This document shows positions 25,073-55,280 of a DNA stretch of 64,000 nucleotides, piece by piece. This DNA comes from Parcubacteria group bacterium. Lineage in GTDB: Bacteria; Patescibacteriota; Minisyncoccia; Phycocordibacterales; UBA2135. The notes under the pieces are model-generated. The model was not told where the DNA came from, ran no database searches, and worked only from the letters and a program-made list of their open reading frames with translations. Location: assembly GCA_016180525.1 (NCBI GenBank), contig JACPBB010000002.1, positions 225,044 through 289,043 of the forward strand, in the 5' to 3' direction. Position 1 is the stretch's first letter; every line of letters starts with the position of its first letter. A program made the translations under genes and the position numbers.

Positions 25073-25152
25073 GATACTAGGCTTTAGGCTCTAGGCCTTA
25101 GGCTTTAGGAAATTTAATGTCCCTAGAGCCTAGTGCCTAACGCCTAGCGCCT
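25073..25152 (-). promoter_or_regulatory. Leader repeat copy 1 (minus orientation): imperfect hairpin (C)TAGGCGTTAGGCACTAGG ... CCTAAAGCCTAAGGCCTAGAGCCTAAAGCCTAG ending with TATC before the ATG
   Basis: Same element as 32847-32917, 36394-36465 and 55224-55280. A short variant is at 48268-48307 and a degenerate one at 34519-34580. Confidence 0.7.
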
Positions 25153-25163
25153 GAAGAATTTAT

Positions 25164-25640
25164 TTATTTAACAGTAATTGTTCCTCGGTGATTTGCCTGT
25201 ATGTGGTTGTGATAGTTCCACGAGCCGACCTCGGTAAATGCAAAACTCCATGAAGACCCCGGCGCGGTAACGGCGCAGGCATCAAACGAAGAACCGAGAC
25301 AGTCGCTCGATGATTTTTTGGGATAGAGCGAGTGTGTTGGGTGAATAGCCGAGGCAACCCACAGAGAAAGCTCACTCTCATTTTTAAACATCACCGTTTC
25401 TCCTGCCTTTATTTCAACAGTTTCAGGGCTGAAACCGTCTTTCGTGTAGGTGACGACTGTGGCAGATATTTTTTCCCCTGCTTTGTTGAGAGTAGAGGGC
25501 AGAGGAGTATTTGAGACCTCCTGTTTTACCTCTTGCATTGAGTTTGTTTCTGGCGCCGCGGCTTTTTTATTAAAGAAAAAAAGACCACCAACAACGACGA
25601 GAAGCACGAGCACAATTCCTAAAATAACTTTAGACTGCAT
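25164..25640 (-). CDS. Secreted protein with a His-rich cupredoxin-like domain (third paralog)
   Basis: Signal/TM N-terminus; GETVMFKNESELSLWVASAIHPTHSLYP...WNYHNHIQANHRGTITVK. Confidence 0.45.
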   Translation of the reverse strand: MQSKVILGIVLVLLVVVGGLFFFNKKAAAPETNSMQEVKQEVSNTPLPSTLNKAGEKISATVVTYTKDGFSPETVEIKAGETVMFKNESELSLWVASAIHPTHSLYPKKSSSDCLGSSFDACAVTAPGSSWSFAFTEVGSWNYHNHIQANHRGTITVK

Positions 25641-30624: not shown

Positions 30625-31278
30625 TTAATGCGCCACCGTGCAGCATAAAATTTTTCGCGCGCCGGCAGCTTCTAAAACTTTTCGCGCCTCTAGCATTGTT
30701 CCTCCTGTTGTATAAATATCATCAATTAAAATTATATTTCTCCCGGCAATTTGTTCGGGATGAGAGAGGCTGAAACACCCGAGAACATTTCGCAGGCGCG
30801 CTTCACGATTTTTTATTGTCGCCTGTGGCGCTGTTTCTTTGTGTTTTTCTAAAACTTCAACGCACAATTTAAATCCCTCTCCGTGAGTTACGAGTTCTTT
30901 TGCGATTAACTCCGCCTGATTAAATCCGCGTTCACGCCACCGTTTTTGTGAAAGCGGAATGGGTATTACAAGCGGCTTTTCAAATTCTTGAAACAAGACC
31001 AACTCTTCCAGCTCGGCGCAGAGTTCCTCGTAGAGCATCTTCGCGCACACTGCCGCAATGTCTTTGCCGCCCTTATATTTTAATGTCCACAGCAGGCGGC
31101 GTATTGTTTCATCTTTGTATTGAAAAACCGAAACAAAACCAGTTTCATCGTGCGCGACCCTCGGCAGCTCTTCAACACAGCTCATACATATATATGTACC
31201 CGTCACTCCGCATTTAAAACACCGCGCGGGAAAGAGCTCGTTGAGTAAGGTCGACCAAAATATCTTTATATATTCCAT
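30625..31278 (-). CDS. comFC: ComF family protein (ComFC-like phosphoribosyltransferase with N-terminal Cys4 zinc finger)
   Basis: CFKCGVTGTYICMSC pattern. PRTase motif NIILIDDIYTTGGTM. 217 aa. Confidence 0.7.
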   Translation of the reverse strand: MEYIKIFWSTLLNELFPARCFKCGVTGTYICMSCVEELPRVAHDETGFVSVFQYKDETIRRLLWTLKYKGGKDIAAVCAKMLYEELCAELEELVLFQEFEKPLVIPIPLSQKRWRERGFNQAELIAKELVTHGEGFKLCVEVLEKHKETAPQATIKNREARLRNVLGCFSLSHPEQIAGRNIILIDDIYTTGGTMLEARKVLEAAGARKILCCTVAH

Positions 31279-31681
31279 ACCTCTTAATGAATCTCCACAC
31301 CTTAACAGGCGTGGAGATTCATTTCAAGAACCCTCGGTTCTTGACGTGACGTGTCGCTTTGCTCGCGTCACTGATCTCCGACACGGGAAAACTGCGCCTC
31401 TCGCCTGTTTCGCTTTGCGAAACAACGGCGAGTCTGCCTGCGACAGATAGGATGAAAAGCAAAGCAGCTTGCTTTTCATTCCTGCTCCCCCTTTCCTTGC
31501 AGCTCTTATTTTCCGCCTTTACAGGCGGAGAATAAGAGCTGAATTAATGGGGATAAGTTTGACAGTTTCAATATTATAATTCAACGCTTGCGTGGTATAA
31601 TTATATAGGCCGAATTCACTTGTGGCGAGCGAAGCCGAATCCACATAGGAAGACACGGAGATACTTGATATTATTAAAGCA

Positions 31682-32842
31682 ATGAGTCTTTTAGAGCAGA
31701 TAATTCGCGCTCCCTTATCTTTTCTTGGAAAATTTGGGAAAAAGAGCGGAAACAGCGTTATCGGTGTTGATATTGGGCCATCCTCAATTAAGGTGGTGCA
31801 ATTGCGCCGTGAAGGCGGCCGCGCCATCCTTGAAACATATGGGGAGCTCGCGCTCGGTCCCTACGCAGGGCTTTCAGTCGGACAAGCGACAAATCTTTCT
31901 GCTGAAAAAATCGCGGAAGTGTTGAAAGACATATTGCGAGAAGCAAATGTTACGACAAAAGAAGCAGCGTTCTCTATTCCGCTTGCCGCAAGTCTCACAT
32001 CTGTCATCTCCCTTCCGGCGGTCAGCGAGAAAGAATTAAAAAGCATGGTTCCGATTGAGGCGCGTAAGTACATACCGGTACCGATTTCCGAAACAACACT
32101 TGATTTTTGGGTAATACCCAAAAGAGAAAACGACACTCTTGAAATTGAGCGCGAGTCTCTGGCGGAAAATTCGGGCGAAGCAAGTGATTCGGGGCGCGTT
32201 GATGTGCTTTTGGTTGCGATTCACAACAGCATTATTCAAAAATATACGCGAGTCGCCGAACTTGCTAGTCTCTCTGTTGGCTTTTTGGAAATTGAAACAT
32301 TTAGTGCTATCCGGGCGCTTCTCTCTGGCGGCATCTCCACATCTCTTATATTGGACATTGGATCAAACGCCACGAATGTTTCAATTGTTGAAAACGGCGT
32401 TGTGTACCGGTCGCATGTGGTAAACCGCGGCTCGCAGGACATAACAGTCGCGCTCTCAAGGGCCTTGAGCATCACGCCGCTTCAGGCAGAAGAAATGAAG
32501 CGCGAAAAGGGAATTTTGGAGGCGGATGGGGAAGAGAGTAAGGTCGCGCACACCGCACGGCTCATATTGGAAAATATTTTTACGGAAGCAAACCGAGTGC
32601 TTCTTGAATACGAGAAGAAACAGCATGCGGCCGTGAGTAGAGTGTTTCTTTCCGGTGGTGGAGCATTGCTCAAAGGGCTATTGTCGTTTGCAAAGCAAAA
32701 TTTAGATACTGAAGTGATATATGGAAATCCTTTTTCAAAAGTAGAAACTCCAGCCTTTCTTGAATCTGTATTAAAGGATATTGGCCCGAGCTTTTCAGTC
32801 GCAGTTGGAGTAGCGCTTCGTAGATTGCAGGAATTAGAATAA
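31682..32842 (+). CDS. pilM: Type IV pilus assembly protein PilM (actin-like ATPase fold)
   Basis: N-terminal VIGVDIGPSSIKVVQL phosphate-1-like motif; about 386 aa; gene order with pilN and pilO. Confidence 0.75.
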   Translation: MSLLEQIIRAPLSFLGKFGKKSGNSVIGVDIGPSSIKVVQLRREGGRAILETYGELALGPYAGLSVGQATNLSAEKIAEVLKDILREANVTTKEAAFSIPLAASLTSVISLPAVSEKELKSMVPIEARKYIPVPISETTLDFWVIPKRENDTLEIERESLAENSGEASDSGRVDVLLVAIHNSIIQKYTRVAELASLSVGFLEIETFSAIRALLSGGISTSLILDIGSNATNVSIVENGVVYRSHVVNRGSQDITVALSRALSITPLQAEEMKREKGILEADGEESKVAHTARLILENIFTEANRVLLEYEKKQHAAVSRVFLSGGGALLKGLLSFAKQNLDTEVIYGNPFSKVETPAFLESVLKDIGPSFSVAVGVALRRLQELE

Positions 32843-32846
32843 ATTT

Positions 32847-32917
32847 CAGGCACTAGCCATTAGGCACTAGGGGAAAATAAAAATATTCCTAAAGCCTAAA
32901 GCCTAAAGCCTAGTATC
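32847..32917 (+). promoter_or_regulatory. Leader repeat copy 2, ending 4 nt before the pilN ATG
   Basis: CAGGCACTAGCCATTAGGCACTAGGGGAAAATAAAAATATTCCTAAAGCCTAAAGCCTAAAGCCTAGTATC-ATG. Confidence 0.7.
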
Positions 32918-33520
32918 ATGGCAGAATTTAAAACATCCTTTATTCCCAAAAAACCCATTTCCCCAAGCGGGGCCGGGCAAGCACAAAAAGGCATCAACCT
33001 TGTTTTGTTTGTTTCAATTGTAATTTTTTTCGCCTCTGCGCTTATCGCGGGCGGGGTATTTTTATTCGGAGTCTTTCTTGACCGGCAGGAACAAGGACTC
33101 ACCTCCTCAATTGAACGTGCACGAGAAGCCATTGAGCCGGAGCTTGTTTCTAGTTTAAGTAGAATTGATGCAAGAATTAAGGCCGTAAAAAATATTCTTG
33201 ATAATCATCGCACGGTTTCTCCGCTTTTTGATTTACTTGAACAAATTACGCTTCAGAGCGTTTCATTTGAAAGTTTTCAATATATTGTTGAGTCCGAAGG
33301 GAAAATTAATTTACTGCTCAGCGGTACGGCACGGAATTATTCCTCCATAGCGCTCCAGTCGGTATTGTTCGGGGAAGACAGATCTATTGAAAATCCTATT
33401 TTTTCAAATCTTCAGCTTAATAATCAAGGAAATGTTAAGTTTAATTTTTCCGCGAATGTGAATCAGCGTCTTACTTTGTACCGGAACGCGGTTTTGGGAG
33501 CAGTAACTCAAAGTTTTTAA
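32918..33520 (+). CDS. pilN: PilN-like pilus assembly protein (N-terminal TM, periplasmic domain)
   Basis: Single TM LVLFVSIVIFFASALIAGGVFLF, then a coiled region; position after pilM. Confidence 0.5.
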   Translation: MAEFKTSFIPKKPISPSGAGQAQKGINLVLFVSIVIFFASALIAGGVFLFGVFLDRQEQGLTSSIERAREAIEPELVSSLSRIDARIKAVKNILDNHRTVSPLFDLLEQITLQSVSFESFQYIVESEGKINLLLSGTARNYSSIALQSVLFGEDRSIENPIFSNLQLNNQGNVKFNFSANVNQRLTLYRNAVLGAVTQSF

Positions 33521-33526
33521 CATACT

Positions 33527-34066
33527 ATGATACGACAAATTTTACCAATTCTTCTTGTCTTAGCGTCGCTTGCGATATTCTTTTTCTTTGTTGTTCCACA
33601 ATACGCGACGCTTCAAGGAAAACGTAGTCAGATAGCCGCCCTTAACGAAGCCCTCAACAATTCACGACAAGTACAGGCCGTGAGAGACAGGTTGCTCACA
33701 AGTTACAACAATATTGCGGACGAAGACATTGACCGGCTGAAGAAAATTTTACCGGACCACGTTGATAACGTGCGTCTCATTCTTGAAATTGATCGTATTG
33801 CTTCCCGGAATGGTATGGTTCTCCAGAATGTGGTTACGAGAGATAGCACGAAAGAAAGCGCCGGTTCTTTTGGACCGAATGACGCGCTTTTCGGGAAGAT
33901 TCGCATAGGGTTTTCTTTGATTGGGCGGTATGAGTCAATTGTGAATTTTCTGGCTGAACTTGAACAAAGTCTCCGCGTTGTTGATGTCGTGGCACTGTCA
34001 TTTGCGCGCGGGCAAGGAGATTTGTTTGAATACGATTTGGAAATTGATACGTATTGGCTAAAGTGA
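33527..34066 (+). CDS. pilO: PilO-like pilus assembly protein
   Basis: N-terminal TM then coiled-coil; 179 aa; operon position. Confidence 0.45.
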   Translation: MIRQILPILLVLASLAIFFFFVVPQYATLQGKRSQIAALNEALNNSRQVQAVRDRLLTSYNNIADEDIDRLKKILPDHVDNVRLILEIDRIASRNGMVLQNVVTRDSTKESAGSFGPNDALFGKIRIGFSLIGRYESIVNFLAELEQSLRVVDVVALSFARGQGDLFEYDLEIDTYWLK

Positions 34067-34218
34067 ATTGGCCCGCCATTTTTGAACTTTCGTTGAGAGT
34101 TCAAAAATGGCGGAAGCCAAACCTTTACCCCTTTCTTTTCGCGCAAGCGCGCAAAAGGAGGGGGTGCTCAAAAAATATATTCATTATTCATTTCATTCAT
34201 AATTCATTATTTTTTGGC

Positions 34219-34518
34219 ATGTCTCAAAAAAATAAAAACATAATACTTGGCGTTGTTCTTCTCGTTGTTATTTTTATGGCGTACTCGTTCTTTTTTAAAA
34301 AAGATTCAAACGAAAGTCCGCTCATTGCAGAGAGTACTCTTTCTCAAAACAAGGAATCAGGAGTTGTTGAAGAATTTTTAGTTCTTTTGCGAACTCTCAA
34401 TAATTTAAAACTTGACGCGGAATTGTTCAATGACGAGGTGTATCGTAGTTTGCGCGATGAGAGCGTGGAGCTTGTTGGGCAGCCTCGTGGACGAGTAAAT
34501 CCGTTTGCACCACTGTAG
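34219..34518 (+). CDS. Small single-TM protein (about 100 aa), possibly a PilP-like accessory protein
   Basis: Start taken at the ATG within the conserved leader motif ...TTTTTTGGCATG. TM IILGVVLLVVIFMAYSFFF. Confidence 0.3.
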   Translation: MSQKNKNIILGVVLLVVIFMAYSFFFKKDSNESPLIAESTLSQNKESGVVEEFLVLLRTLNNLKLDAELFNDEVYRSLRDESVELVGQPRGRVNPFAPL

Positions 34519-34580
34519 CCTCTAGGCCATAGGGTCGTCAAAGACTAATGGCTAAATCCTAGTGGTTAACTACTAACATC

Positions 34581-36383
34581 ATGGCTTTTTTAGACTATCT
34601 TGTTCAAAAAGGAATTTTAGAGTCGCGTGATATTGATACAATTATAGAAGAAAGCGCCGACTCGGGAGACATAGAACCCGCATTACAAAAGCGCGGCATT
34701 CCCGAGGAAAAACTTTTAAATCTTAAGGCGGAATATTTTGGTGTGCCTGCCAAAAATATTGACCCAGCGGCCGTTTCCGCCGAACTGTTGCGGTACATAC
34801 CGGAAGAATCGGTGTTACATTATCATTTTATTCCCATTGGATTTGCCGATGGCGTGCTTGAGGTTGGCGTCATTGATCCCGACAACATGGAGGCACGCGA
34901 TGCGCTCCAGTTTATCGCTTCAAAACTCGGTGTCCCATTTAAAATATTTCTTATTTCCAAATCAAATTTTGATGCGTTACTTGAAAACTATCGCGGATTA
35001 ACTGGGGAAGTACACCAGGCTCTTTCAGAAATTGAAAGCGAGGTACAGTCGGAAAACGCACCTCCCGTGCCCGTGCCGTCCATAAGTGACCTGCAATCAG
35101 GAAAAAACATCGGTACGAATAAGAAAAAAATATCCATAAATAAAAACGGATTGCCGACCGATAAAATTACGAATGACGTCAACATTGGCAAAGGGGTAAT
35201 TCTAGAAGATGCTCCTGTTACAAAAATTGTTGGTGTTATTTTACGGCATGCGATTGACGGAGGAGCTTCGGATGTTCACATAGAGCCGACTGCCAAAAAT
35301 ATTCGCGTGCGCTTTAGGGTAGACGGAGTTTTATACACGAGCTTACAGCTTCCCTCGGCTGTTTTAAACGCAGTTGTCGCACGGATTAAAGTTATGGCGA
35401 ATTTGAAACTTGATGAAAAAAGGAAACCACAAGACGGAAGATTCCCCATGAAGCTAGAGGAAAGGACCATTGATCTGCGCGTTTCCACTTTTCCTACGTA
35501 TTATGGGGAAAAGGTAGTTATGAGAATCTTAGACCCACAGCGGGGCGTTGCCGAACTTGAAAAAACGGGTCTTTCTGAAGAAAATATTAAAAAAATACGC
35601 GAAGCGATTAAACGTCCTTACGGAATGATTTTGCTTACTGGCCCCACTGGTTCTGGAAAGACGACGACTCTCTATGCCATGTTAAAAGAACTTGACCGTG
35701 ACAAGAAAAATGTTGTCAGTCTTGAAGATCCCGTAGAATATACGATTGAGGGCGTGAGTCAGTCACATGTTCGACCAGAAATTGGATACACATTTGCGAC
35801 TGGTTTGCGCACTACGCTTCGTCAAGATCCAGATGTGGTTATGGTGGGGGAGATTAGAGATAAGGAAACCGCAGAACTAGCGATTCAAGCGGCGCTTACG
35901 GGACACCTTGTACTCTCAACGCTCCACACGAACAACGCTGCTGGAGTTGTGCCAAGACTTGTAGACATGGGCATTGACCAATATCTTATAGCGGCAACCC
36001 TTGCAGTCGCGATTGCGCAGCGTCTTGTAAAAGTAATTTGCCCTGATTCTAAAAAGCCAGTGCCGGTTACGGAAAGCATCAAGGTAATGGCAGAAAAGTT
36101 ATTTGCGGATCTTCCCGCTGAATTTAAAAAACAAATTCCCCGTATGAAAAATGTCTATGAAGCGGTGCCGTCGGAGAGTTGCCCCGGTGGTACCCGTGGC
36201 AGAACAGGCGTTTTTGAGCTTTTTGTGGTTGATCGGGATATGGAAAAAGTGATACTGACAAACCCCGTTGAGTCTGAAATATTTAGGGTGGCGCGGGGAC
36301 AAGGAATGCTTACTATGAAAGAAGATGCCCTCATTAAAGCATTAGAGGGTGTAATCCCTTTTGGTGAAGTTAACGCACTGTAA
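34581..36383 (+). CDS. pilB: Type IV pilus assembly ATPase PilB (GspE family)
   Basis: N-terminal GSPII_E_N-like domain; Walker A LLTGPTGSGKTTTLYAML; Asp and His boxes; tetracysteine-like CPDS...CPGG region. Confidence 0.9.
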   Translation: MAFLDYLVQKGILESRDIDTIIEESADSGDIEPALQKRGIPEEKLLNLKAEYFGVPAKNIDPAAVSAELLRYIPEESVLHYHFIPIGFADGVLEVGVIDPDNMEARDALQFIASKLGVPFKIFLISKSNFDALLENYRGLTGEVHQALSEIESEVQSENAPPVPVPSISDLQSGKNIGTNKKKISINKNGLPTDKITNDVNIGKGVILEDAPVTKIVGVILRHAIDGGASDVHIEPTAKNIRVRFRVDGVLYTSLQLPSAVLNAVVARIKVMANLKLDEKRKPQDGRFPMKLEERTIDLRVSTFPTYYGEKVVMRILDPQRGVAELEKTGLSEENIKKIREAIKRPYGMILLTGPTGSGKTTTLYAMLKELDRDKKNVVSLEDPVEYTIEGVSQSHVRPEIGYTFATGLRTTLRQDPDVVMVGEIRDKETAELAIQAALTGHLVLSTLHTNNAAGVVPRLVDMGIDQYLIAATLAVAIAQRLVKVICPDSKKPVPVTESIKVMAEKLFADLPAEFKKQIPRMKNVYEAVPSESCPGGTRGRTGVFELFVVDRDMEKVILTNPVESEIFRVARGQGMLTMKEDALIKALEGVIPFGEVNAL

Positions 36384-36393
36384 TATAATAAAA

Positions 36394-36465
36394 ATAGGCA
36401 CTAGGCGTTAGGCATTAGGAAAAAACAACGATATTCCTAAAGCCTAAAGCCTAAAGCCTAGTATC
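36394..36465 (+). promoter_or_regulatory. Leader repeat copy 3, ending 4 nt before the pilT ATG
   Basis: TAGGCACTAGGCGTTAGGCATTAGGAAAAAACAACGATATTCCTAAAGCCTAAAGCCTAAAGCCTAGTATC-ATG. Confidence 0.7.
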
Positions 36466-37515
36466 ATGGAAAAAACAACTCTGGAACAATTAATTGATAT
36501 CGTAATGAAAGAGGGGGCATCAGACCTTCATATTTCTTCTGGCAGACATCCTACGATTCGTGTTGCTGGGGAATTGACCACTCTTTCTAAATACCCCGTT
36601 TTGTCAAAAGGAGACGCTTTGGAGATTCTTACACTTCTTGTCGGAGAGAGTTCAAAAAAGGAATTTCTGGAAACCCATGAGCTTGATTTTTCTTATTCCG
36701 CAAAAAACGGCTCTCGTTTCAGAGGAAACGCGTTTGTGCAGCAGGGTGCTGTGGGCATCGCGCTCCGTTTTATTCCTTCGCGAGTGATGACCCTCGAAGA
36801 ATTAAGTCTTCCTCCTATTCTTGAAACATTCGCCATGCGAAAGCAGGGATTTTTCTTAGCGGTTGGGCCGGTGGGTCAAGGTAAATCAACAACTCTTGCA
36901 GCAATGATAGATATTATAAATAAACAACGCACGGAACATATTGTTACCATTGAAAATCCTATTGAATTTGTTTACGAAGCCGGTAGTTCTATTATTGATC
37001 AGCGGGAAGTTGGTGTTGATACGAGAGATTTTCACATAGCCCTGCAGTCAGTATTCAGGCAAGACGTTGATGTTATTATGGTTGGTGAAATGCGCGGGCC
37101 TGATACTATTGCGACCGCGGTAACTGCAGCAGAGACGGGGCACCTCGTACTCTCAACGCTTCACACGAATAATGCTGCGCAAACCATTGACCGCATTATT
37201 GATACCTTTCCTTCGGAGCAGCAGAATCAAATTAGGGCGCAACTTTCTCAAAGCCTTGCCGGCATTTTTTCGCAAAGGCTTATTCCCAGAATTTCTGGAG
37301 GCGTAATTCCCGCCTATGAACTCTTAATAAATACTCCGGCCGTCGCGAACCTGATTCGTGAAGGAAGGACGCACGAGATAAATGTTGTCATAGAGACCGG
37401 CGCCGAGGAGGGAATGATTCATATGGACCGAACTCTCGCGGAGTTGGTTCGACGAGGGGAAATTACTCAAGAGAGCGCTCGGGCGTATTCTCTGAATACG
37501 GAGATATTTAAGTAA
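36466..37515 (+). CDS. pilT: Twitching motility ATPase PilT
   Basis: Walker A GPVGQGKSTTLAAM; AIRNLIREGK-like motif; 349 aa. Confidence 0.9.
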   Translation: MEKTTLEQLIDIVMKEGASDLHISSGRHPTIRVAGELTTLSKYPVLSKGDALEILTLLVGESSKKEFLETHELDFSYSAKNGSRFRGNAFVQQGAVGIALRFIPSRVMTLEELSLPPILETFAMRKQGFFLAVGPVGQGKSTTLAAMIDIINKQRTEHIVTIENPIEFVYEAGSSIIDQREVGVDTRDFHIALQSVFRQDVDVIMVGEMRGPDTIATAVTAAETGHLVLSTLHTNNAAQTIDRIIDTFPSEQQNQIRAQLSQSLAGIFSQRLIPRISGGVIPAYELLINTPAVANLIREGRTHEINVVIETGAEEGMIHMDRTLAELVRRGEITQESARAYSLNTEIFK

Positions 37516-37669
37516 ATTAAGAAGCGAAGCGACTATGATTTACTTAACCCTGTTAAATAACCTCGTTTGATAATTTGATTGCAAATTATCAAACGAGGTT
37601 CCCGCTTCGCGGGATTTAACAGGGTGATGATTTTTAAGAATTCGTTATCACTCGTTTAAAAAATCTATC

Positions 37670-38878
37670 ATGCTTTTTCAATACAAAGTTATTAATCAAG
37701 AAGGGAAACCGCAGGAGGGCTCGATTGACGCGCTTAATGAAGAAGTGGCTATTAATTCTCTTCAACGAAGAGGACTTACTGTTGTTTCAGTAACTAAAGA
37801 AAAAGAAGAATCTTTTTTTGAAAAGCAACTTTCATTTTTTGAACGGGTTTCCGTTCGAGATGTGGTTATACTGTCAAGGCAAGTTTCTACTCTTTTTACC
37901 GCGGAAGTTTCTGCGCTTCGTGTATTTCGTCTTTTGGCGGGAGAATCCGAAAATCCAAATTTACGAAAAAAACTTGGAATAGTGGCGGATGACATACAGG
38001 GAGGTTCTTCAATTTCTGACGCACTCTCAAAGCACCCATCTATTTTTTCTCCGTTTTATGTAAATCTTGTGCGCGCAGGAGAAGAGGCGGGAAAACTTAA
38101 TGAAGCATTTTCGCACTTAGCAGATTACCTTGATCGGTCGTACGAGCTCACCATTAAAACGAGAAACGCTCTTATTTATCCGGCGTTTGTTATCGCTACC
38201 TTCGTGGTGGTTATGATACTTATGCTTACTATGGTTATACCGCGGCTCTCCGCGATTTTATTTGAGACAGGGCAGGAGATTCCTATATATACAAAAATAG
38301 TTGTGAGTATAAGTGATTTTTTTGTGAGTTATGGGATTTTGGTTCTCATATTGTTGCTGGGAGGCGGCATCGCGCTCGGCAGATTTGTAATGACCCCTAC
38401 GGGAAGACACTCGTTGGATCGATTTAAAATCTCAGCTCCCTTTTTTGGCAAATTGTTTCAAAAATTATACCTTGCTCGTATTGCCGATAACATGCACACC
38501 ATGCTTACGAGTGGCATTTCAATGGTTAAGGGGCTTGAAATCACCGCTTCTATCGTAGGGAATGTCGTGTATGAAGACATATTGAAAAAAGCGGCAGAAG
38601 ACGTGAAGGGGGGAGATTCGGTTTCAAATTCTTTTGGTGGGCACAGGGCGGAAATTCCAAATATCATGGTACAGATTATAAAAGTGGGTGAGGAGACTGG
38701 AGAACTGGGAAACATTCTCCGCACGCTCTCTGCTTTTTACGAGCGCGAAGTACGCAATGTTGTCGATACTCTTGTCGGACTTATAGAGCCCGTGCTTATT
38801 GTAGGGCTTGGTCTTGGAGTAGGGCTTTTGCTTACCTCAGTGCTCATTCCGATATATAATATTTCGAGTGGGTTTTAA
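37670..38878 (+). CDS. pilC: Type IV pilus inner-membrane platform protein PilC (GspF family)
   Basis: Two GspF repeats; 402 aa; TM segments. Confidence 0.85.
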   Translation: MLFQYKVINQEGKPQEGSIDALNEEVAINSLQRRGLTVVSVTKEKEESFFEKQLSFFERVSVRDVVILSRQVSTLFTAEVSALRVFRLLAGESENPNLRKKLGIVADDIQGGSSISDALSKHPSIFSPFYVNLVRAGEEAGKLNEAFSHLADYLDRSYELTIKTRNALIYPAFVIATFVVVMILMLTMVIPRLSAILFETGQEIPIYTKIVVSISDFFVSYGILVLILLLGGGIALGRFVMTPTGRHSLDRFKISAPFFGKLFQKLYLARIADNMHTMLTSGISMVKGLEITASIVGNVVYEDILKKAAEDVKGGDSVSNSFGGHRAEIPNIMVQIIKVGEETGELGNILRTLSAFYEREVRNVVDTLVGLIEPVLIVGLGLGVGLLLTSVLIPIYNISSGF

Positions 38879-39106
38879 GAGAAAATAAAGAGCGAAGCGA
38901 CTCTATTTTTCTTACCCCCCCCTCACTCTTAGAGAGTGAGGGGGTGCTCAAATTTAACACTCGCTAACGCTCGTTTAAATTTGGCATGTGGATAATATAC
39001 GCACCTTATTTTATTGTATGGTATACTATATAGTACAACTGAGAATAATAATTTCTCAATTTTAAAATGTTTTTAGGTCGAGTTCAAAACAATAATTAAT
39101 ACATAT

Positions 39107-39565
39107 ATGATTTTTTATAAAAAAGGTGGAACCAGAGAAGGTTTTACTTTGATTGAACTTCTTGTGGTTATTGCGATTATCGGCATTCTTTCTTCTGTGG
39201 TGCTTGCCTCCCTCAACAGCGCGCGAGAAAAATCACGGGACGCAAAGCGAGTTGCCGACTTAAAACAGATTCAGCTTGCTCTTGAACTTTACTTTGACGA
39301 TAACAACAGCACATATCCCGCAACACTTGCCCCGCTTACAACAGGAAGCTATATCCCTGTTATTCCCGAAGACCCAAATGGAGCAGCGTATAGCTACTCA
39401 GGACTCGGAGGTGCTACATGTACTGATTATCACTTGAGGGCGACGCTTGAGAATGCGGCAAACCCCGCGCTTGATAATGATTCAGATGCGGCAGCGGGAA
39501 CGGCTTGCACGGGAAGCGCCGCAGATGCTGCCGGGACTGATCCGATATATGATTTGAAGCCCTAA
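39107..39565 (+). CDS. Type IV pilin (prepilin with class III signal: leader ...REG / FTLIELLVVIAIIGIL)
   Basis: G/F cleavage site, Glu+5, hydrophobic helix; 152 aa. Confidence 0.8.
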   Translation: MIFYKKGGTREGFTLIELLVVIAIIGILSSVVLASLNSAREKSRDAKRVADLKQIQLALELYFDDNNSTYPATLAPLTTGSYIPVIPEDPNGAAYSYSGLGGATCTDYHLRATLENAANPALDNDSDAAAGTACTGSAADAAGTDPIYDLKP

Positions 39566-39632
39566 CTCACTCCGCAGTTGATTTTGCGGATGACCGGGCA
39601 AGCGTTTTTGCGAAGCAAAAAGCGCTTTAGCC
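39560..39632 (+). repeat. Structured repeat E4 (paralog of E1); it overlaps the pilin stop codon
   Basis: CCCTAACTCACTCCGCAGTTGATTTTGCGGATGACCGGGCAAGCGTTTTTGCGAAGCAAAAAGCGCTTTAGCC. Confidence 0.6.
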
Positions 39633-39721
39633 GTAATTTGCTTTTTACTGCACGCAGTGCGTTAAACAAGCTCTGTTTCATCAGGAACGGGGCTTGTTTC
39701 TGTTGATGGTATAATGAATCT

Positions 39722-40552
39722 ATGATTTTATATTTTTCAATTCTTGTTTTTATACTGGGACTTATTGTCGGCAGTTTTTTAAATTCGTTTATTACTCGAT
39801 ACCAAACAGGGCTTGGATATGGCGGGCGATCTTTTTGTTTTTCATGCGGACACAAGCTGTCCTTTAGAGACCTTATTCCTATTTTGAGTTTCATATTTCA
39901 AAAAGGCCGTTGTCGGTACTGTGGGGCCCGTCTCTCGCTTCAGTATCCATTAGTTGAGGTTGTCACAGGACTAGTATTTGTTTTTGTAATTATAAAATTG
40001 GGCTTTTTTTTATCGCCACTCTACTTTCTACTTTCTACTTTCTACTTGTTTATTTTCAGTATTCTTGTCGCGATTGTGTTTTATGACATTCGACATAAAA
40101 TCATTCCGAATGCCCTCGTCTATTTATTTATTGCTCTTTCTTTCTCAAGCATCTTTTTCAATGATTTTTTGCTACAAACTACAAACCACAAACTACAAGC
40201 TCTCAGTGCAGGGCCAATTGTTGCCGCCCCTCTTTTCCTTTTATGGCTCATATCAGCAGGAAAATGGATCGGTCTCGGAGACAGTAAGCTCGCACTTGGT
40301 ACTGGATGGTTTCTTGGAGTATCAGGTGGGTTTACCGCACTTATTCTGGGAACATGGATTGGCGCTGCCGTCGGCATCTTGTTTATTATCGGAGGAAAAA
40401 TGTTTCGCGCATTTCCTTATTTGTCCCAAAGGTTTAAAAGATTTACAATGAAGAGTGAGATACCGTTTGCACCGTTTATTATTTTGGGAACATTAATCGT
40501 TTTTTTCTGTGACATTTCTTTTGCGGACATCCAATCACTGTTTATGTTCTGA
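39722..40552 (+). CDS. pilD: Prepilin peptidase PilD (A24 family) with N-terminal zinc-binding CxxC...CxxC
   Basis: CFSCGHKLSFRDLIPILSFIFQKGRCRYCGARLS plus polytopic TM. Contains the tandem repeat (CTACTTT) x3.9 at 40021-40047. Confidence 0.85.
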   Translation: MILYFSILVFILGLIVGSFLNSFITRYQTGLGYGGRSFCFSCGHKLSFRDLIPILSFIFQKGRCRYCGARLSLQYPLVEVVTGLVFVFVIIKLGFFLSPLYFLLSTFYLFIFSILVAIVFYDIRHKIIPNALVYLFIALSFSSIFFNDFLLQTTNHKLQALSAGPIVAAPLFLLWLISAGKWIGLGDSKLALGTGWFLGVSGGFTALILGTWIGAAVGILFIIGGKMFRAFPYLSQRFKRFTMKSEIPFAPFIILGTLIVFFCDISFADIQSLFMF

Positions 40553-40599: not shown

Positions 40600-41238
40600 A
40601 TGAATTTACGAAAGTGCATTAAAAAAACATACGAACAAATACGAAAAAATTTCGCACGGTTTTCGTATAATTTCGTATATGTTCGTAGAGAAGGTTTTTC
40701 TCTCGTAGAGCTTTTAGTGACGGTTTCTATTTTTGTAATCGTTACAAGCATCGTGCTTATAAATTTCCCCTCATTCAGCAGTAAAATAGCTCTTGATAAC
40801 TTGGCACACGAAGTGGCTCTTTCGGTTCGGCAGGCACAAGTGTTTGGTGTTTCATCAAAAGAGTCTGCTATTGGATCAGGAATTTTTCCTAGCCATGGAG
40901 CGCATTTTGACATAAACCAAAATGCCAAATTTTCACTTTTTATTGATATTGATGAAAACAACAAATATACCGGCGAATCTGAACTTTCAGAAACGTTTAA
41001 TATTCAGCGGAGAAATTACATTAGTGAAATCTGCGGCTTTTTAACGTCCGCATCAAGCTGTACCCCGCTTGATGTTGTTGATATTGTTTTTACACGGCCG
41101 AATCCGGAACCAACACTTTTAGGAAAGGTTGGTGTGTCTGAAAATCTATATTCATACGCAACCATAACGATTTCTTCCCCGTCTGGAGCAACGCGTTCCG
41201 TGGTTGTATGGTCAAACGGACAAATAGCCATCCAATAA
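40600..41238 (+). CDS. Pilin-like protein 1 (prepilin-type N-terminal domain) with 32-aa leader
   Basis: MNLRKCIKKTYEQIRKNFARFSYNFVYVRREG / FSLVELLVTVSIFVIV. Confidence 0.65.
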   Translation: MNLRKCIKKTYEQIRKNFARFSYNFVYVRREGFSLVELLVTVSIFVIVTSIVLINFPSFSSKIALDNLAHEVALSVRQAQVFGVSSKESAIGSGIFPSHGAHFDINQNAKFSLFIDIDENNKYTGESELSETFNIQRRNYISEICGFLTSASSCTPLDVVDIVFTRPNPEPTLLGKVGVSENLYSYATITISSPSGATRSVVVWSNGQIAIQ

Positions 41239-41240
41239 AC

Positions 41241-41858
41241 ATGAACCTACTAAACTGTACTAAAAAAACATACGAACAAATACGAAAAAATTTCGCAATG
41301 CTTTCGCGTAATTTCATACATGTTCGTAGGAGAGGCTTTACCCTTATAGAGATGATTGTTGCTGTTTCGGTGTTTGTGGTTGTCATGGTCTCTGGTATCG
41401 GCGCGCTTGTTTCTATGATTGACGCTAATCGAAAAGCCCAATCGCTCCGTATTGTTATGGACAATCTCAATTTTGCGCTCGAAAACATTACCCGTAACAT
41501 GCGTGTCGGGGTTGATTACCACTGCGGCGCGGTCGGAGATTTAAATGTTCCGCGCGACTGCCCCGTTGACGGAGATAGCTTTATTGCATTTACAAACTCA
41601 AGCGGGGATAGAATTATTTTTAGATTAAACAGTGGAAGGATTGAAAAATCAGAAGACCTTGGGGCGAGCTTTTTGGGCATTACGGCTCCGGAAATTACGG
41701 TTGAAGAATTGCGCTTTTTCGTTCAAGGTTCGGAAGCAGGGGACGGGCTTCAGCCAGAAGTTCTTGTTATTGTAAGGGGCGTTGCCGGAGCAACTCCAGA
41801 GACAAGCACTACATTTAGCCTGCAGACCATTGCGTCTCAAAGGCTGCGAGACACGTAA
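41241..41858 (+). CDS. Pilin-like protein 2, paralog with a homologous 32-aa leader
   Basis: MNLLNCTKKTYEQIRKNFAMLSRNFIHVRRRG / FTLIEMIVAVSVFVVV. The leader region is about 85% nt-identical to gene 1. Confidence 0.65.
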   Translation: MNLLNCTKKTYEQIRKNFAMLSRNFIHVRRRGFTLIEMIVAVSVFVVVMVSGIGALVSMIDANRKAQSLRIVMDNLNFALENITRNMRVGVDYHCGAVGDLNVPRDCPVDGDSFIAFTNSSGDRIIFRLNSGRIEKSEDLGASFLGITAPEITVEELRFFVQGSEAGDGLQPEVLVIVRGVAGATPETSTTFSLQTIASQRLRDT

Positions 41859-41859
41859 T

Positions 41860-42384
41860 ATGAAAATTCAAAATTCAAAATTCAAAATTCAAAATTTTCG
41901 TGAATCCGCAGGGTTCACATTGGTGGAATCTTTGGTCGCGATTTCAATCGTTCTGGTGTCTGTCGTCGGGCCGCTTACTATTATTTCAAAAACGCTTTCA
42001 TTTGCGCGCTTTGCTCGTGATGAAATTACCGCATTTTATCTTACACAAGACGCGGCAGAGTTCGTGAGAAACACGAGAGATAACAGTATAATTGCAGGAG
42101 AGGATTGGCTCGCAGACCTCTCTGCGTGCGTTGGAGGAGTGTGTGCAGTTGACCCAACTGCGGGAATTATTTTTAGCTGTGGCGTCTCTTGTGACCCGCT
42201 CAAACTCTCTTCTTCCGGGGTGTATGGGTACACAAATGGAAACAACACTATCTTTACAAGAGAAATAACCATTGATGAGACATCAGGAAACAGAGAGGCA
42301 ACGATTGATGTAACGCTTAGGTGGCGACAAGGTCTCGCTGAAAGAAATTTTACAATACGAGAGTATATATTTAATTGGCAGTAA
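41860..42384 (+). CDS. Pilin-like protein 3
   Basis: MKIQNSKFKIQNFRESAG / FTLVESLVAISIVLV. Leader encoded by (AAATTC)x4. Confidence 0.6.
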   Translation: MKIQNSKFKIQNFRESAGFTLVESLVAISIVLVSVVGPLTIISKTLSFARFARDEITAFYLTQDAAEFVRNTRDNSIIAGEDWLADLSACVGGVCAVDPTAGIIFSCGVSCDPLKLSSSGVYGYTNGNNTIFTREITIDETSGNREATIDVTLRWRQGLAERNFTIREYIFNWQ

Positions 42385-42447
42385 AAATAATTTCAAATTG
42401 CAAATTGTAAATTTCAAATTTATAGTTAACAATCTGCAATCTGAAAT

Positions 42448-45014
<2,567 letters not shown>

Positions 45015-46827: not shown

Positions 46828-48266
46828 GCATCGATCTTTCACAATTGACTATTTCAAAAACTCGTAACCATTTGCTGAGAGGTGATTTTACCGTACAGGA
46901 ACTTACCGAGAGTTATTTAAAGAATATCGCCAAAAAAAATTCCGATATTAACGCATATGTAGAGATATTTGATGATGTGCTCGCGCAAGCCGAGAAGGCG
47001 GACAAAGAGATTGCTACTCAAAAAGAGAAATCGTCACCATTATGCGGGACTCCGGTTGCGATAAAAGACAATATTTTGATTAAAGGACGCCATGTTTCAT
47101 GTGGTTCCAAAATTTTAAAAAATTATAAAGCGACATATGACGCCACGGCGATTGCAAAACTGAAAGAAGCGGGGGCAGTTTTTCTGGGACGCGCGAATAT
47201 GGACGAGTTTGCCATGGGGAGCTCTACTGAACGCTCTGCATTCGGTCCGACAAAAAATCCACATGACACCCTTCGTTCTCCGGGCGGCTCCTCCGGTGGT
47301 CCTGCGGCCGTGGTTGCGATGGATGGGGCGCTGGCTTCGCTCGGCTCTGACACGGGCGGTTCAGTGCGTCAGCCGGCAAGTTTTTGTGGTGTCGTTGGCC
47401 TTAAACCAACATACGGTGCGGTATCACGATACGGGCTTGTCGCCATGGCATCATCTTTTGATCAGATTGGCCCTATTACAAAAACCGTTGAAGACGCGGA
47501 GATTGTCTTTAATGCAATTTCTGGAAAAGATCCGTATGACTCAACATCCGCTGAATCTATAACTCAAAACTCAAAACCTAAAACCTCAAAATTTACTATT
47601 GGCATTCCAAGTTTTTTGTTTGGAAAAGAGACTCCGCTTGAGGATGATGTGTTACAAAATTTTAATAATTCTATAGAGATGCTCAAAAAAGAGGGCCATA
47701 CCGTAAAAGAGGTTGAAATGCCGCTCGTTAAATATGCTTTGCCCGTTTACTATATTATTATGCCGGCAGAGGCGTCTACGAATCTTGCGCGCTTTGATGG
47801 TGTGCGGTATGGGCTCTACGCAGAAGGTAAAAATTTATTTGATGATTATGCAGATACACGCGGTGTGGGATTCGGACCCGAAGTAAGAAGGCGCCTGCTT
47901 CTTGGGGCGTATGTGCTTTCATCTGGATATTATGACGCGTATTACAGGAAAGCAGTCGCTGTTCAAAACGCTATTAGATTTGATTGTGAATCTGCGTTTA
48001 AGAATGTTGATGTGATAGTTACGCCAACTTCGCCAACCCCCGCCTTTGTTCTTGGAGAAAAATTGGAAGATCCTGTTGCCATGTATCTCTCTGATATTTT
48101 AACTGTTGTTGCAAATATTGGAGGGTTCCCCGCAATTTCCGTTCCTTCGGGCACTGTTATGCGTGGGAAGAGCAGTCTTCCGCTTGGAATTCAGTTTATG
48201 GCTCCGCACAATGAAGAAAATGTCCTATTTTCAATAGGAAAAGAATTTGAAATAATTAAGGAATAA
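46824..48266 (+). CDS. gatA: Glutamyl/aspartyl-tRNA amidotransferase subunit A (amidase signature family)
   Basis: GGSSGGPAAVVA and GSDTGGSVRQPA amidase-signature motifs; 480 aa. Confidence 0.9.
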   Translation: MSIDLSQLTISKTRNHLLRGDFTVQELTESYLKNIAKKNSDINAYVEIFDDVLAQAEKADKEIATQKEKSSPLCGTPVAIKDNILIKGRHVSCGSKILKNYKATYDATAIAKLKEAGAVFLGRANMDEFAMGSSTERSAFGPTKNPHDTLRSPGGSSGGPAAVVAMDGALASLGSDTGGSVRQPASFCGVVGLKPTYGAVSRYGLVAMASSFDQIGPITKTVEDAEIVFNAISGKDPYDSTSAESITQNSKPKTSKFTIGIPSFLFGKETPLEDDVLQNFNNSIEMLKKEGHTVKEVEMPLVKYALPVYYIIMPAEASTNLARFDGVRYGLYAEGKNLFDDYADTRGVGFGPEVRRRLLLGAYVLSSGYYDAYYRKAVAVQNAIRFDCESAFKNVDVIVTPTSPTPAFVLGEKLEDPVAMYLSDILTVVANIGGFPAISVPSGTVMRGKSSLPLGIQFMAPHNEENVLFSIGKEFEIIKE

Positions 48267-48267
48267 T

Positions 48268-48307
48268 TAGGTACTAGGAAAAATAGAGATTCCTAAAGCC
48301 TCGTGTT
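48268..48307 (+). promoter_or_regulatory. Short variant of the leader repeat (TAGGTACTAGG...TTCCTAAAGCCTCGTGTT-ATG)
   Basis: It shares both arms with the other leader copies but has a shorter stem. Confidence 0.5.
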
Positions 48308-48308
48308 A

Positions 48309-48426
48309 TGGATCCCGTTCCAAATCGCGGGCGCGAAACAACGCATATGATATATACAACAAAAATTCACATTACAAGTAACATAATGGGTCGTTGCGCT
48401 TAAGGCGCCCGCGCCCTATTTGGAAC
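48309..48426. repeat. MITE-like unit: 27-bp terminal inverted repeats (TGGATCCCGTTCCAAATCGCGGGCGCG ... CGCGCCCGCGCCCTATTTGGAACGGGATGGA) around a 65-nt core
   Basis: The arms are reverse complements with one indel. The right arm overlaps the first codons of the 48394 ORF. Confidence 0.5.
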
Positions 48427-49065
48427 GGGATGGATTTACTTGCACAAGCAACAAAAGTCGAGCAAACTGCGCAACAGGTTACTTTTTTTGATCCGAATTA
48501 TCTGAATATTCAGTATTTTTTTAATCTGGTCCCCACCTTTTTCAAATGGCTCTTTTCCATAAGTGGAGGAGCATTTTTAGACGGAACTTATATTGACAAA
48601 AGTTCTCTTGAAAATATTTTTTTGTTTTTTTCAGCTGTCCTCCTTTGGGGTAGCATTTATTCATTTTGGAAAATACGAAATATACGGAAAGAACAAAATG
48701 CTCGCTGGAGCGACATTCATATTTCAGCGCTTGAAAATGTCACGAAAACAGAACACAACAGAACCTGGGCCGAGATTCTTGACCGCCTTGATTCGTTTAA
48801 TGAATCCGACTGGAGAAGGGCGATTCTCTCTGCTGACTCCATGCTTGATGAAATGCTTGAGACAATGGGCTATCACGGAGAGACTATCGGAGAGCGGCTG
48901 AAAACGATTGAAGAGAGTGATTTTCTTACGCTTGATAAGGCGTGGGAAGCGCATAAGGTACGCAACCGCATCGCGCACGAGGGAGAGTTTGTGCTCACAA
49001 AACGAGAAGCTCGCCGCGTGATCGATCTCTACAAAGACGTCTTTGAGGAGTTCCATTTTATTTAA
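48394..49065 (+). CDS. Membrane-anchored protein with a C-terminal HEPN-like R-x4-6-H motif (RNRIAH)
   Basis: Two N-terminal TM helices. C-terminal KAWEAHKVRNRIAHEGEF. The true start may be the Met at about 48430. Confidence 0.3.
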   Translation: MRLRRPRPIWNGMDLLAQATKVEQTAQQVTFFDPNYLNIQYFFNLVPTFFKWLFSISGGAFLDGTYIDKSSLENIFLFFSAVLLWGSIYSFWKIRNIRKEQNARWSDIHISALENVTKTEHNRTWAEILDRLDSFNESDWRRAILSADSMLDEMLETMGYHGETIGERLKTIEESDFLTLDKAWEAHKVRNRIAHEGEFVLTKREARRVIDLYKDVFEEFHFI

Positions 49066-55223: not shown

Positions 55224-55280
55224 AAGGCACTAGGCGTTAGGAAAAAATAAAAATATTCCTAAAGCCTAAAGCCTAGTTTT
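55224..55280 (+). promoter_or_regulatory. Leader repeat copy 6, ending 4 nt before the ftsX ATG (inside the ftsEX operon)
   Basis: AAGGCACTAGGCGTTAGGAAAAAATAAAAATATTCCTAAAGCCTAAAGCCTAGTTTT-ATG. Confidence 0.7.

Follow-up and report, generated by a model that had tools for sequence, protein, structure and literature searches.

A hairpin repeat built from opposed heptanucleotide arrays immediately upstream of start codons in a Patescibacteria-like lineage

What is a repeated, hairpin-forming sequence doing directly in front of start codons, in some cases in the middle of an operon? The question is raised by a 64,000-nt stretch of DNA from a Parcubacteria group bacterium (GenBank assembly GCA_016180525.1, contig JACPBB010000002.1, positions 225,044 to 289,043 of the forward strand; the whole stretch, numbered from its first letter, is called the window), in which an earlier note had described an imperfect-hairpin leader element repeated six times and had offered a translational gate, an RNase processing or stabiliser site, or an internal promoter as its role. 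The analysis showed that the element is an interspersed multi-copy repeat of the repetitive extragenic palindrome (REP) or miniature inverted-repeat transposable element (MITE) kind, whose arms are opposed 7-nt arrays, (U/A)AGGC-R-Y in the 5′ arm and GCCUAAA in the 3′ arm; by folding prediction, its RNA or single-stranded DNA can form a long hairpin of 5-bp blocks. In a Patescibacteria-like lineage the element lies in transcribed spacer with its 3′ foot 4–5 nt before the start codon, is biased in orientation and leaves no Shine–Dalgarno (SD) sequence. It turns over fast, is homogenised within genomes and conserves a periodic mismatch. As to function, we tentatively infer that the hairpin acts as RNA, forming the 5′ boundary (a pseudo-5′ end) of an SD-independent ribosome landing site, and that it is tolerated and modulatory but not essential.

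Reading the sequence of the window confirmed the six sites, at or near the places first reported: four of the copies are full, one is short and one is a decayed relic. Motif and shuffle counts bore out that number. The copies, designated A to F, are as follows.

25077..25153, minus strand: copy A, full, 5+5 units, before the DoxX-like ATG (25072-25070), with the stop codon of a cupredoxin-like gene upstream (25164-25166). In mRNA sense, left arm CAGGCGC TAGGCGT TAGGCAC TAGGCTC TAGG, then loop GACATTAAATTT; right arm CCTAAAG CCTAAGG CCTAGAG CCTAAAG CCTAG, then spacer TATC and ATG
32847..32913, plus strand: copy B, 4+4 units, between the pilM stop (32840-32842) and the pilN-like ATG (32918); left arm 32847-32871, loop 32872-32887, right arm 32888-32913, spacer TATC
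34519..34562, plus strand: copy C, decayed relic (CCTCTAGGCCATAGGG ... GGCTAAATCCTAG), with a stop codon overlapping or preceding it (34516-34518) and the pilB ATG 18 nt on (34581)
36395..36461, plus strand: copy D, 4+4 units, between the pilB stop (36381-36383) and the pilT ATG (36466); left arm 36395-36419, loop 36420-36435, right arm 36436-36461, spacer TATC
48268..48303, plus strand: copy E, short, 2+2 units (TAGGTAC TAGG, loop, CCTAAAG CCTCG), between the gatA-like stop (48264-48266), which it follows by 1 nt, and ATGGAT at 48308, 4 nt ahead
55224..55276, plus strand: copy F, 3+3 units, between the ftsE stop (55213-55215) and the ftsX ATG (55281); left arm 55224-55241, loop 55242-55257, right arm 55258-55276, spacer TTTT

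Read in the sense of the gene that follows, the copies share one layout: (T/A/C)AGGCNN units running into TAGG, an A-rich loop of 12–16 nt, CCTAAAG units running into CCTAG, 4 nt, and ATG. The 4-nt spacers between CCTAG and ATG are TATC (three times), TTTT and TGTT. Unit numbers, read by eye, are equal in both arms (5/5, 4/4, 4/4, 3/3 and 2/2); matched arms are claimed for the window copies only, the arm-length correlation over all parsed elements (see below) being poor (r about 0.1–0.17), with degenerate units mis-parsed. The element had been described as about 75 nt long and as ending 1–4 nt before a start codon. Both figures need correction: counted from CCTAG the element ends 4 nt before the ATG (the relic is 18 nt off), and the copies range from 36 to 77 nt. 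The position directly 5′ of the DoxX-like, pilN, pilT and ftsX starts, the location of three copies inside operons (pil and ftsEX) and the lack of an SD motif between element and ATG were all confirmed. Pfam identified PilM, PilB, PilT, FtsE, FtsX and an amidase as flanking products; DoxX is a weak Pfam match only (E 6.7e-4, under the curated cut-off), and pilN, with no Pfam match, is named from its place after pilM and from its orthologues.

Within the window, period-7 TAGG/CCTA pairs are confined to the element sites. CCTAnnnCCTA and TAGGnnnTAGG each occur 11 times, at these sites only, against mononucleotide-shuffle means of 0.56 and 1.34, and the 12-mer GCCTAAAGCCTA gave 14 matches with at most one mismatch where 0.16 were expected. 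The elements occupy 0.6% of the window and hold 52 of its 140 TAGGC/GCCTA-type 5-mers, with no further cluster elsewhere. Tandem Repeats Finder resolved the arms into period-7 arrays of 2.6–4.6 copies, with 100% identity in three 3′ arms, in agreement with the tandem GCCTAAA array first noticed in the 3′ arm. The arms are therefore simple sequence repeats by the usual definition (head-to-tail 7-nt units, at least three copies, above chance with shuffle control), and the elements are multi-copy extragenic imperfect palindromes (six copies in 64 kb, all non-coding, z −2.0 to −7.4). A repeat search with 9-nt seeds detects copy A alone, the mismatches at each 7 nt breaking the seeds. A DNA uptake sequence was rejected, as the core 5-mers are not enriched outside the elements, and so was an integron attC site, the flanks being core housekeeping operons.

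The pattern search was extended beyond the window, as had been proposed, and uncovered a large family in public genomes and metagenomes. An exact search with CCTAAAGCCTAAAGCCTAG, taking one genome per species, gave at least 115 loci (L001-L115), and a search of metagenomes with a hairpin-shaped pattern gave at least 120 loci with a GC content of 0.26–0.68; the opposed-array hairpin was also seen at many of the genome loci listed. The lineage-specific sequence ATATTCCTAAAGCCTAAAGCC had 0 matches in the metagenome contigs, the window's own species being apparently absent there. From the matches listed, to which all counts for other genomes below refer, 198 non-redundant elements were parsed by unit-by-unit arm extension. 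This procedure replaced borders defined by RNAfold, which overshot into flanks and start codons and misclassed many copies, pilN and pilT included, as not start-adjacent. Orientation was scored from CCTA(A/G)(A/G)G-type units versus their complements, earlier metrics based on purine spacers and on A/T counts having been noisy.

At the low-GC, Patescibacteria-like loci, the last CCTA lies 2–10 nt (mode 5) ahead of the first start codon of a long open reading frame (ORF), which in an earlier parse was ATG in 44 cases and GTG in 2. The CCTAAAG-type arm was start-proximal in 39 of 46 oriented low-GC cases (binomial 1.8e-6), and in the window and its closest relatives every start-adjacent copy has the same orientation, the minus-strand copy included. 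Failures of the strict adjacency test were mostly contig edges, composite forms with extra outer arms, and additional degenerate units. Adjacency to the ATG holds even where 150–400 nt of non-coding DNA lie upstream. For example, at the pilin gene of L229 the element lies about 190 nt past the pilC stop, downstream of a promoter-like TATACT that is also present in the window, and 5 nt from the ATG. The genes directly behind low-GC elements include those for SecY (2), S7 (2), L9 (2), S11, S12, DnaK, GroEL and FtsZ, and further NusA, LigA, RuvC and PilB/PilT. Hence the element is compatible with high expression and marks no functional regulon.

Hosts of the family include Candidatus Saccharibacteria, other Patescibacteria, Chamaesiphon, Vicinamibacterales and other Acidobacteriota, a Hydrogenedentes metagenome-assembled genome (MAG), Bacteroidota and others. 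Abundant GCCTAAA/TTTAGGC arrays were observed in unrelated phyla (L003, L016, L071 and L076, Hydrogenedentes; L009, L066 and L078, Vicinamibacterales; many Chamaesiphon). Arrays of this kind among the genome loci are often near-perfect hairpins; they are not tied to start codons and favour neither orientation. The sharing across phyla may reflect horizontal spread or convergence. A composite variant was also seen in some Saccharibacteria MAGs (L030, L055, L101, L144, L165, L180, L183, L190, L198, L204, L231 and L233), in which the TAGGC/GCCTA hairpin, with its inner part reversed, is nested in outer arms AGCTTCCTAGCTTTC / GAAAGCTAGGAAGCTA, the outer 3′ arm carrying an SD-like AGGAAG no more than about 20 nt from the ATG.

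The predicted free energies of the sense RNA of copies A to F were −42.8, −20.0, −20.1, −31.8, −9.6 and −20.9 kcal/mol, with hairpin z-scores of −5.9, −2.0, −3.1, −7.4, −2.2 and −4.6. When the five repeat-type copies are folded to minimum energy, the AUG stays single-stranded together with the 4 nt ahead of it: predicted pairing stops 6–9 nt short of the ATG, and CCTAG ends 4 nt short of it. The suggested gate that sequesters the start region does not fit these folds. The arms had also been thought to pair through G-U wobbles, but such pairs occur on the antisense strand only, which in the window copies folds equally well or better; the irregularities of the sense strand are G.A, A.A and C.A internal loops. 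Among the 87 oriented low-GC elements, the 3′-arm spacers are uniform (AAG 162, GAG 34) and the 5′-arm spacers mixed (CGT 67, CAC 43, CGC 36, CAT 28), with CTT, the perfect complement, found just five times in the 5′ arm. Each 7-nt step thus consists of an invariant 5-bp block, a purine.A mismatch, and then a U-A pair or a C.A mismatch, and the periodic mismatch itself looks maintained. On average the gene-sense hairpin is 3.0 kcal/mol weaker than its complement (35 vs 18, Wilcoxon 2e-4). Stop codons are present in all three sense frames in all six window copies; because 7 mod 3 = 1, three units are enough to place a stop in each frame. In the window nothing reached the Rfam gathering score, and admitting E values up to 10 on 32800-36500 gave chance-level matches to eukaryotic families only. 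A curated cis-regulatory RNA family was therefore rejected.

Relatives of the window were found by tblastn, and comparison with them showed how the element evolves. Protein identity to the window is 53–74% for the pil operon of L185/L203, 80% for PilT of L174, 54–79% for L229, and 70% (RF2) and 79% (FtsE) for L123; in L096, a Candidatus Saccharibacteria MAG, PilM is 51% identical over 146 aligned C-terminal residues. At the pilM-pilN junction the element is present in the window, in L185/L203 (PilM 67% identical) and in L096, and at the pilB-pilT junction in the window, L174 and L185. Before pilB, where the window has its relic (rightly called degenerate in the earlier note), an intact element stands in L185/L203. 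Elements in L229 precede homologues of the window genes 39107, 40600, 42475 and 42993, none of which has one in the window, where the ligA-like gene begins only 2 nt past its neighbour. In L123 the arrangement is opposite to that in the window: ftsE is preceded by an element and ftsX is not. Presence and absence thus differ between relatives at 62–80% protein identity. In L185 (661-1251), an extra small ORF (about 120 aa) was noted between pilB and pilT, with one element before it and another before pilT.

Copies of one genome hardly differ from locus to locus, even in the loop (in L185 the left arm and loop of the pilN copy match those of the pilT copy exactly), whereas orthologous copies differ between genomes in unit order and loop; the relatives carry 3–5 copies per 7–11 kb. 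Because paralogous copies are more alike than orthologous ones, concerted evolution or recent duplicative spread of the REP/MITE type is indicated, a pattern that is unlike that of an independently conserved regulatory RNA. Arm length probably changes by heptamer slippage, to which the window genome is generally prone. No clear flanking direct repeat was found when filled and empty junctions were compared (window vs L229, L123 and L185), the whole element being the inverted repeat.

The translational setting was surveyed in the window. An SD-like motif lies 4–12 nt upstream of about 14 of the 54 genes, and a leaderless-type TAnnnT lies 5–8 nt before the ATG in about 9 of 54; the other genes, pilin and pilC included, have AU-rich leaders with no SD. 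TATAAT-like hexamers exactly 6–7 nt before the ATG were observed at many genes, for example at 9623(-), 15450, 21440, 31682, 39722, 53534 and 60538(-), and the genes concerned include pilM, prepilin peptidase, RF2 and smpB, which points to leaderless transcripts. Outside the window, the SD is not replaced in L118, an IMG/VR contig, where the element lies upstream of AAAGGAGAG-N7-ATG. The 16S rRNA 3′ end of the element-bearing, low-GC metagenome contig L166 reads GGAAUAAUUCAAUUU and lacks the CCUCC anti-SD, whereas that of L146, also element-bearing, has a normal tail. The idea that the 3′ arm pairs with the tail of the 16S rRNA was rejected, as inspection of the L146 tail showed only AAAG with CUUU, which is negligible. 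The 16S gene of L166 (1-602, 1482-1530) further holds an element inside a 120-nt insertion in a helix loop, at model position about 1160, and is apparently interrupted by about 900 nt before helix 45; this copy, in the opposite and more stable orientation, is the sole non-mRNA context found.

On the landing-site reading, the hairpin would lock all upstream sequence in a helix ending where the SD–anti-SD helix would normally lie. The AUG would then be the first accessible codon of a single-stranded stretch, as at a 5′ end, and ribosomes could load there in a lineage already SD-less at many genes, with leaderless promoters and AU-rich leaders. The arm stops in three frames would end read-through translation just upstream, and the conserved mismatches and the orientation bias would hold the mRNA-strand hairpin below the stability it could reach. 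Since any single gene can do without the element, it would be a module that is tolerated and probably modulatory, and not an essential signal. If a hairpin of 50–80 nt placed 4–5 nt from the AUG permits or drives the translation of essential and highly expressed genes, start recognition in these bacteria departs from the textbook scheme, gene callers and ribosome-binding site models for such genomes would need adjustment, and the Saccharibacteria genetic tools under construction would gain a native expression element. Patescibacteria make up a large share of bacterial diversity, and gene expression there is almost unstudied.

Several observations weigh against the landing-site reading. Covariation is absent: a formal pair count on the 31 copies of alignment A1 scored 0.037, whereas 500 shuffles averaged 0.045 and 494 of them scored as high or higher. 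It revealed no compensatory substitutions, whose absence the earlier note had named as one of two grounds for refutation. Such changes are missing because the paired cores are constant and the positions that do vary are for the most part mismatched (in A1 the two variable positions are unpaired in 15–27 of 31 copies, the core pairs being invariant). Unit numbers vary between copies, which makes their alignment arbitrary. The covariation test neither supports nor refutes an RNA structure, and the hairpin potential is a consequence of the inverted-repeat design alone. The element is also dispensable, as shown by the relic before pilB, by pilin and ligA, which lack it here and have it in L229, and by the ftsE/ftsX swap. 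By strict parsing 7 of 46 low-GC copies are reversed, about 10–15% of low-GC copies adjoin stop codons only, and at high-GC loci the orientation is unbiased (16:12). With −20 to −43 kcal/mol and pairs that end 6–9 nt before the AUG, the hairpin would be expected to hinder a conventional 30S subunit, and the short distance to the start codon could partly reflect the short intergenic spacers of a compact genome.

It is quite possible, though on balance we doubt it, that the repeat is purely selfish or neutral, made by slippage together with duplicative spread or gene conversion, surviving in scarce non-coding DNA, for the most part the short spacers ahead of start codons, with the orientation bias reflecting only the purging of the more stable and more harmful orientation and the RNA hairpin of no use. 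The rapid gain and loss between relatives, the greater likeness of paralogues than of orthologues, the relic ahead of a functional pilB and the absence of covariation all agree with this, as do the many phyla that carry the repeat with no rule of position or orientation, the L166 copy in a 16S helix loop, the stops in all frames, which confine the element to non-coding DNA, and the many other period-7 arrays in the genome. Such a repeat would not be expected to keep to the ATG where 150–400 nt of upstream spacer are free, to persist at the pilM-pilN junction down to 51% PilM identity, or to avoid the perfect complement CTT consistently, as if the mismatch were maintained; nor would copies be expected to be kept in streamlined genomes before highly expressed essential genes. 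Moreover, Pfam revealed no transposase or RAYT among the approximately 65 window proteins. The same scans showed no RNase or candidate RNA-binding regulator, and no parent insertion sequence element was seen in the window.

A bolder view, which we regard as unlikely, combines spread and function. The element would be a self-propagating translation-start cassette, a third ribosome-loading signal beside SD and leaderless starts, whose mismatch-tuned hairpin makes internal cistrons pseudo-leaderless, with or without cleavage at the foot. Able to copy itself before new genes, it would have replaced SD sites across Patescibacteria, those of the genes for ribosomal proteins, SecY, DnaK, GroEL and FtsZ included, and the heptamer hairpin would have spread between phyla.

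An RNase-processing or stabiliser role, as the earlier note suggested, is possible. In the form that we considered, and hold to be distinctly unlikely, the hairpin would be punctuation between cistrons: RNase III would cut in the stem, or an RNase Z- or RNase Y-like enzyme at the 3′ foot, leaving the hairpin as a 3′ stabiliser of the upstream mRNA and giving the downstream mRNA a leader of at most 5 nt for leaderless (70S) translation. We take the geometry of the element to resemble that of phage T7 intercistronic RNase III sites and of mitochondrial tRNA punctuation. The strict 2–10 nt spacing and the preponderance of ATG over GTG are in keeping with such cleavage, as are the leaderless-type promoters of the genome (TAnnnT 6–7 nt before the ATG) and the presence of elements before internal cistrons, which cannot have a true leaderless start. 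By folding prediction, full copies reach the helix length of an RNase III site of the T7 R-site type (about 20 bp or more of double-stranded RNA with an internal loop), but with about 11 bp the 2+2-unit copies fall short of what RNase III needs, and copies adjoining stop codons alone would be left unexplained. The absence of an RNase gene from the window also counts against it, though linkage is not required.

Translational coupling was also considered, and we give it a low probability. Here the hairpin would block independent loading, and a ribosome terminating on the upstream gene would melt the lower stem and re-initiate at the AUG, placed beside the stop codon by the folded stem, which would fix operon stoichiometry. 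A co-directional stop codon lies within 40 nt of 29 of the 53 start-adjacent low-GC copies (about 55%), mostly −7 to +11 nt from the 5′ arm, and in several copies the upstream gene terminates on the element's own first TAG. All six window copies come after a co-directional gene, and REPs no more than 15 nt past stop codons are reported, in work cited in PMC12306157, to stall Escherichia coli ribosomes. However, the remaining 45% or so of start-adjacent copies, e.g. the pilin copy of L229, have longer 5′ untranslated regions or follow divergent genes, and because these copies lack a nearby upstream stop, coupling is not the general mechanism.

That the element is an operator for a periodic, multimeric RNA- (or DNA-) binding protein, which would open or clamp the hairpin and co-regulate the tagged genes, appears highly improbable. 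The invariant UAGG/CCUA cores at exact 7-nt spacing, the conserved R.A mismatch and the occurrence of the core in several phyla would suit such a protein, and the 5′ arm reads (UAG-N4)n, which resembles the pattern bound by HutP-type oligomers (three or more UAG triplets separated by 4 nt). A binding partner has likewise been proposed for other start-adjacent heptamer repeats (PMC4679880; bioRxiv 10.1101/2022.06.06.494920). On the other hand, the tagged genes share no common function, presence is variable between close relatives, and no HutP, TRAP or CsrA-like protein is encoded in the window. An internal promoter, as once proposed, or a transcription terminator or attenuator can be given almost no credence, for although the loops of the window copies are A/T-rich and the hairpin follows stop codons, a consensus scan of 31000-40000 placed no sigma-70-like or terminator-like site on any of the three elements of the pil operon. 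TAnnnT is missing from the loops, nor are these conserved from one genome to another; of the full copies, three out of four have no U-tract behind the stem, and elements occur within operons that depend on expression of the genes further downstream.

Direct heptamer arrays were observed immediately before start codons as well. Arrays of (AATTTCA)x4.7 and (AATCTGA)x4.4 precede the ATG at 42475 (window 42389-42461), and (AATCTGC)x3 precedes pilC in L174. Since the junction of L229 that corresponds to 42475 bears the hairpin element instead, heptamer-periodic leaders seem to be interchangeable in the lineage. Other arrays, perfect ones, lie in coding sequence of type IV pilus genes: (AAAATTC)x4.9 at 41863-41896, right after the ATG at 41860, in the leader-peptide part of a prepilin-like gene (MKIQNSKFKIQNFRESAGFTLVE), and (TCTACTT)x4 at 40020-40047 inside the prepilin peptidase gene. 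These pilus-gene arrays are candidate phase-variation switches, because one unit gained or lost shifts the frame. Phase variation of the tagged genes by the elements themselves was rejected, the element arrays lying outside ORFs with the 3′ end fixed to the ATG. Period-10 inverted tandem repeats, AAAAAATACG / TTTCGTATAA, were noted at 40624-40687 and 41265-41291, at the 5′ ends of two adjacent minor-pilin-like genes and within apparent long leader-peptide coding regions.

Behind copy E, a 116-nt palindromic sequence (48314-48429) lies between direct repeats ATGGAT at 48308-48313 and 48430-48435. Its arms are CCCGTTCCAAAT... / ...ATTTGGAACGGG; the region folds at −58.7 kcal/mol (z −5.3), and the window holds no second copy. 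It has the look of a separate MITE-like insertion that duplicated its target site, unrelated to the heptamer element. The insertion creates a spurious 30-codon ORF, so the mini-ORF once placed at 48308 owes its start codon to the duplication, and the real gene start, of a gene of unknown function, is at 48430. As the ATGGAT-flanked insertion now separates the two, the short element first abutted this gene. A practical consequence of the heptamer element was seen in Logan contigs L116 and L117, which encode the window's exact PilT and start 23 nt 5′ of the pilT ATG, inside the 3′ arm of copy D. Because they begin there, short-read assemblies evidently break at the repeat, which can also mislead annotation.

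How does the element compare with known systems? Neisseria Correia/NEMIS MITEs and phage T7 intercistronic sites are repeated hairpins in mRNAs that are processed by RNase III, with consequences for how stable the flanking cistrons are and how they are translated. Terminal inverted repeats, a TA target duplication and promoter elements characterise the Correia family, and the T7 sites are not mobile; unlike the present element, neither is heptamer-periodic or fixed 4–5 nt from a start. REP/BIME and REPIN-RAYT sequences are, like it, short imperfect extragenic palindromes, multi-copy, co-transcribed in operons and often no more than 15 nt from an upstream stop (PMC12306157), and REP/BIME also evolve in concert within a genome. 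However, REPs have no tandem 7-nt units, begin with a GTAG or CGTC head, occur in both orientations, are tied to a RAYT and are not positioned by the downstream start; no GTAG/CGTC head was found in the window copies or in alignment A1, where the 5′ ends read (A/T/C)AGGC. Heptanucleotide arrays are the commonest long simple repeats in many bacteria according to Mrazek (2007, as cited in PMC4679880). The cyanobacterial short tandemly repeated repetitive sequences are also heptanucleotide arrays, and GCCTAAA itself is abundant in Chamaesiphon genomes, but they are mostly direct arrays of other sequences, for which a start-adjacent inverted-array hairpin is not described.

Among published systems, the TAACTGA direct heptamer repeats of marine Beggiatoaceae (MacGregor 2015, PMC4679880) come closest; they are start-proximal, and a translational role was proposed for them, their function being left open. 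A second parallel is the heptamer repeats of Nostoc, which lie near start codons and promoters (bioRxiv 10.1101/2022.06.06.494920). Like the element, the TAACTGA repeats are short 7-nt arrays a few nucleotides before starts, in one orientation, that overlap or replace the ribosome-binding site, hold forward-frame stops, precede unrelated genes including ribosomal protein genes, and have a patchy cross-phylum distribution. By the same measures, the present element is start-proximal (2–10 nt, mode 5), oriented (39:7) and accompanied by no SD motif; the window also has direct arrays of AATCTGA-type units before one start (42431-42461). The differences are that the TAACTGA repeats are direct, with no predicted structure, whereas the arrays here are opposed and form a hairpin (−20 to −43 kcal/mol in full copies), and that the units here are GCCTAAA / TAGGCRY in a Patescibacteria-like host. 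Our literature search found no paper with the repeat as a sequence string, nor one joining heptamer or repeat terms with Patescibacteria or Saccharibacteria. The element offers a testable case for the role of the start-adjacent heptanucleotide repeats of Beggiatoaceae and cyanobacteria, and of one short repeat occurring in unrelated phyla. What is new relative to these systems is an interspersed hairpin repeat that doubles as a start-proximal heptanucleotide array.

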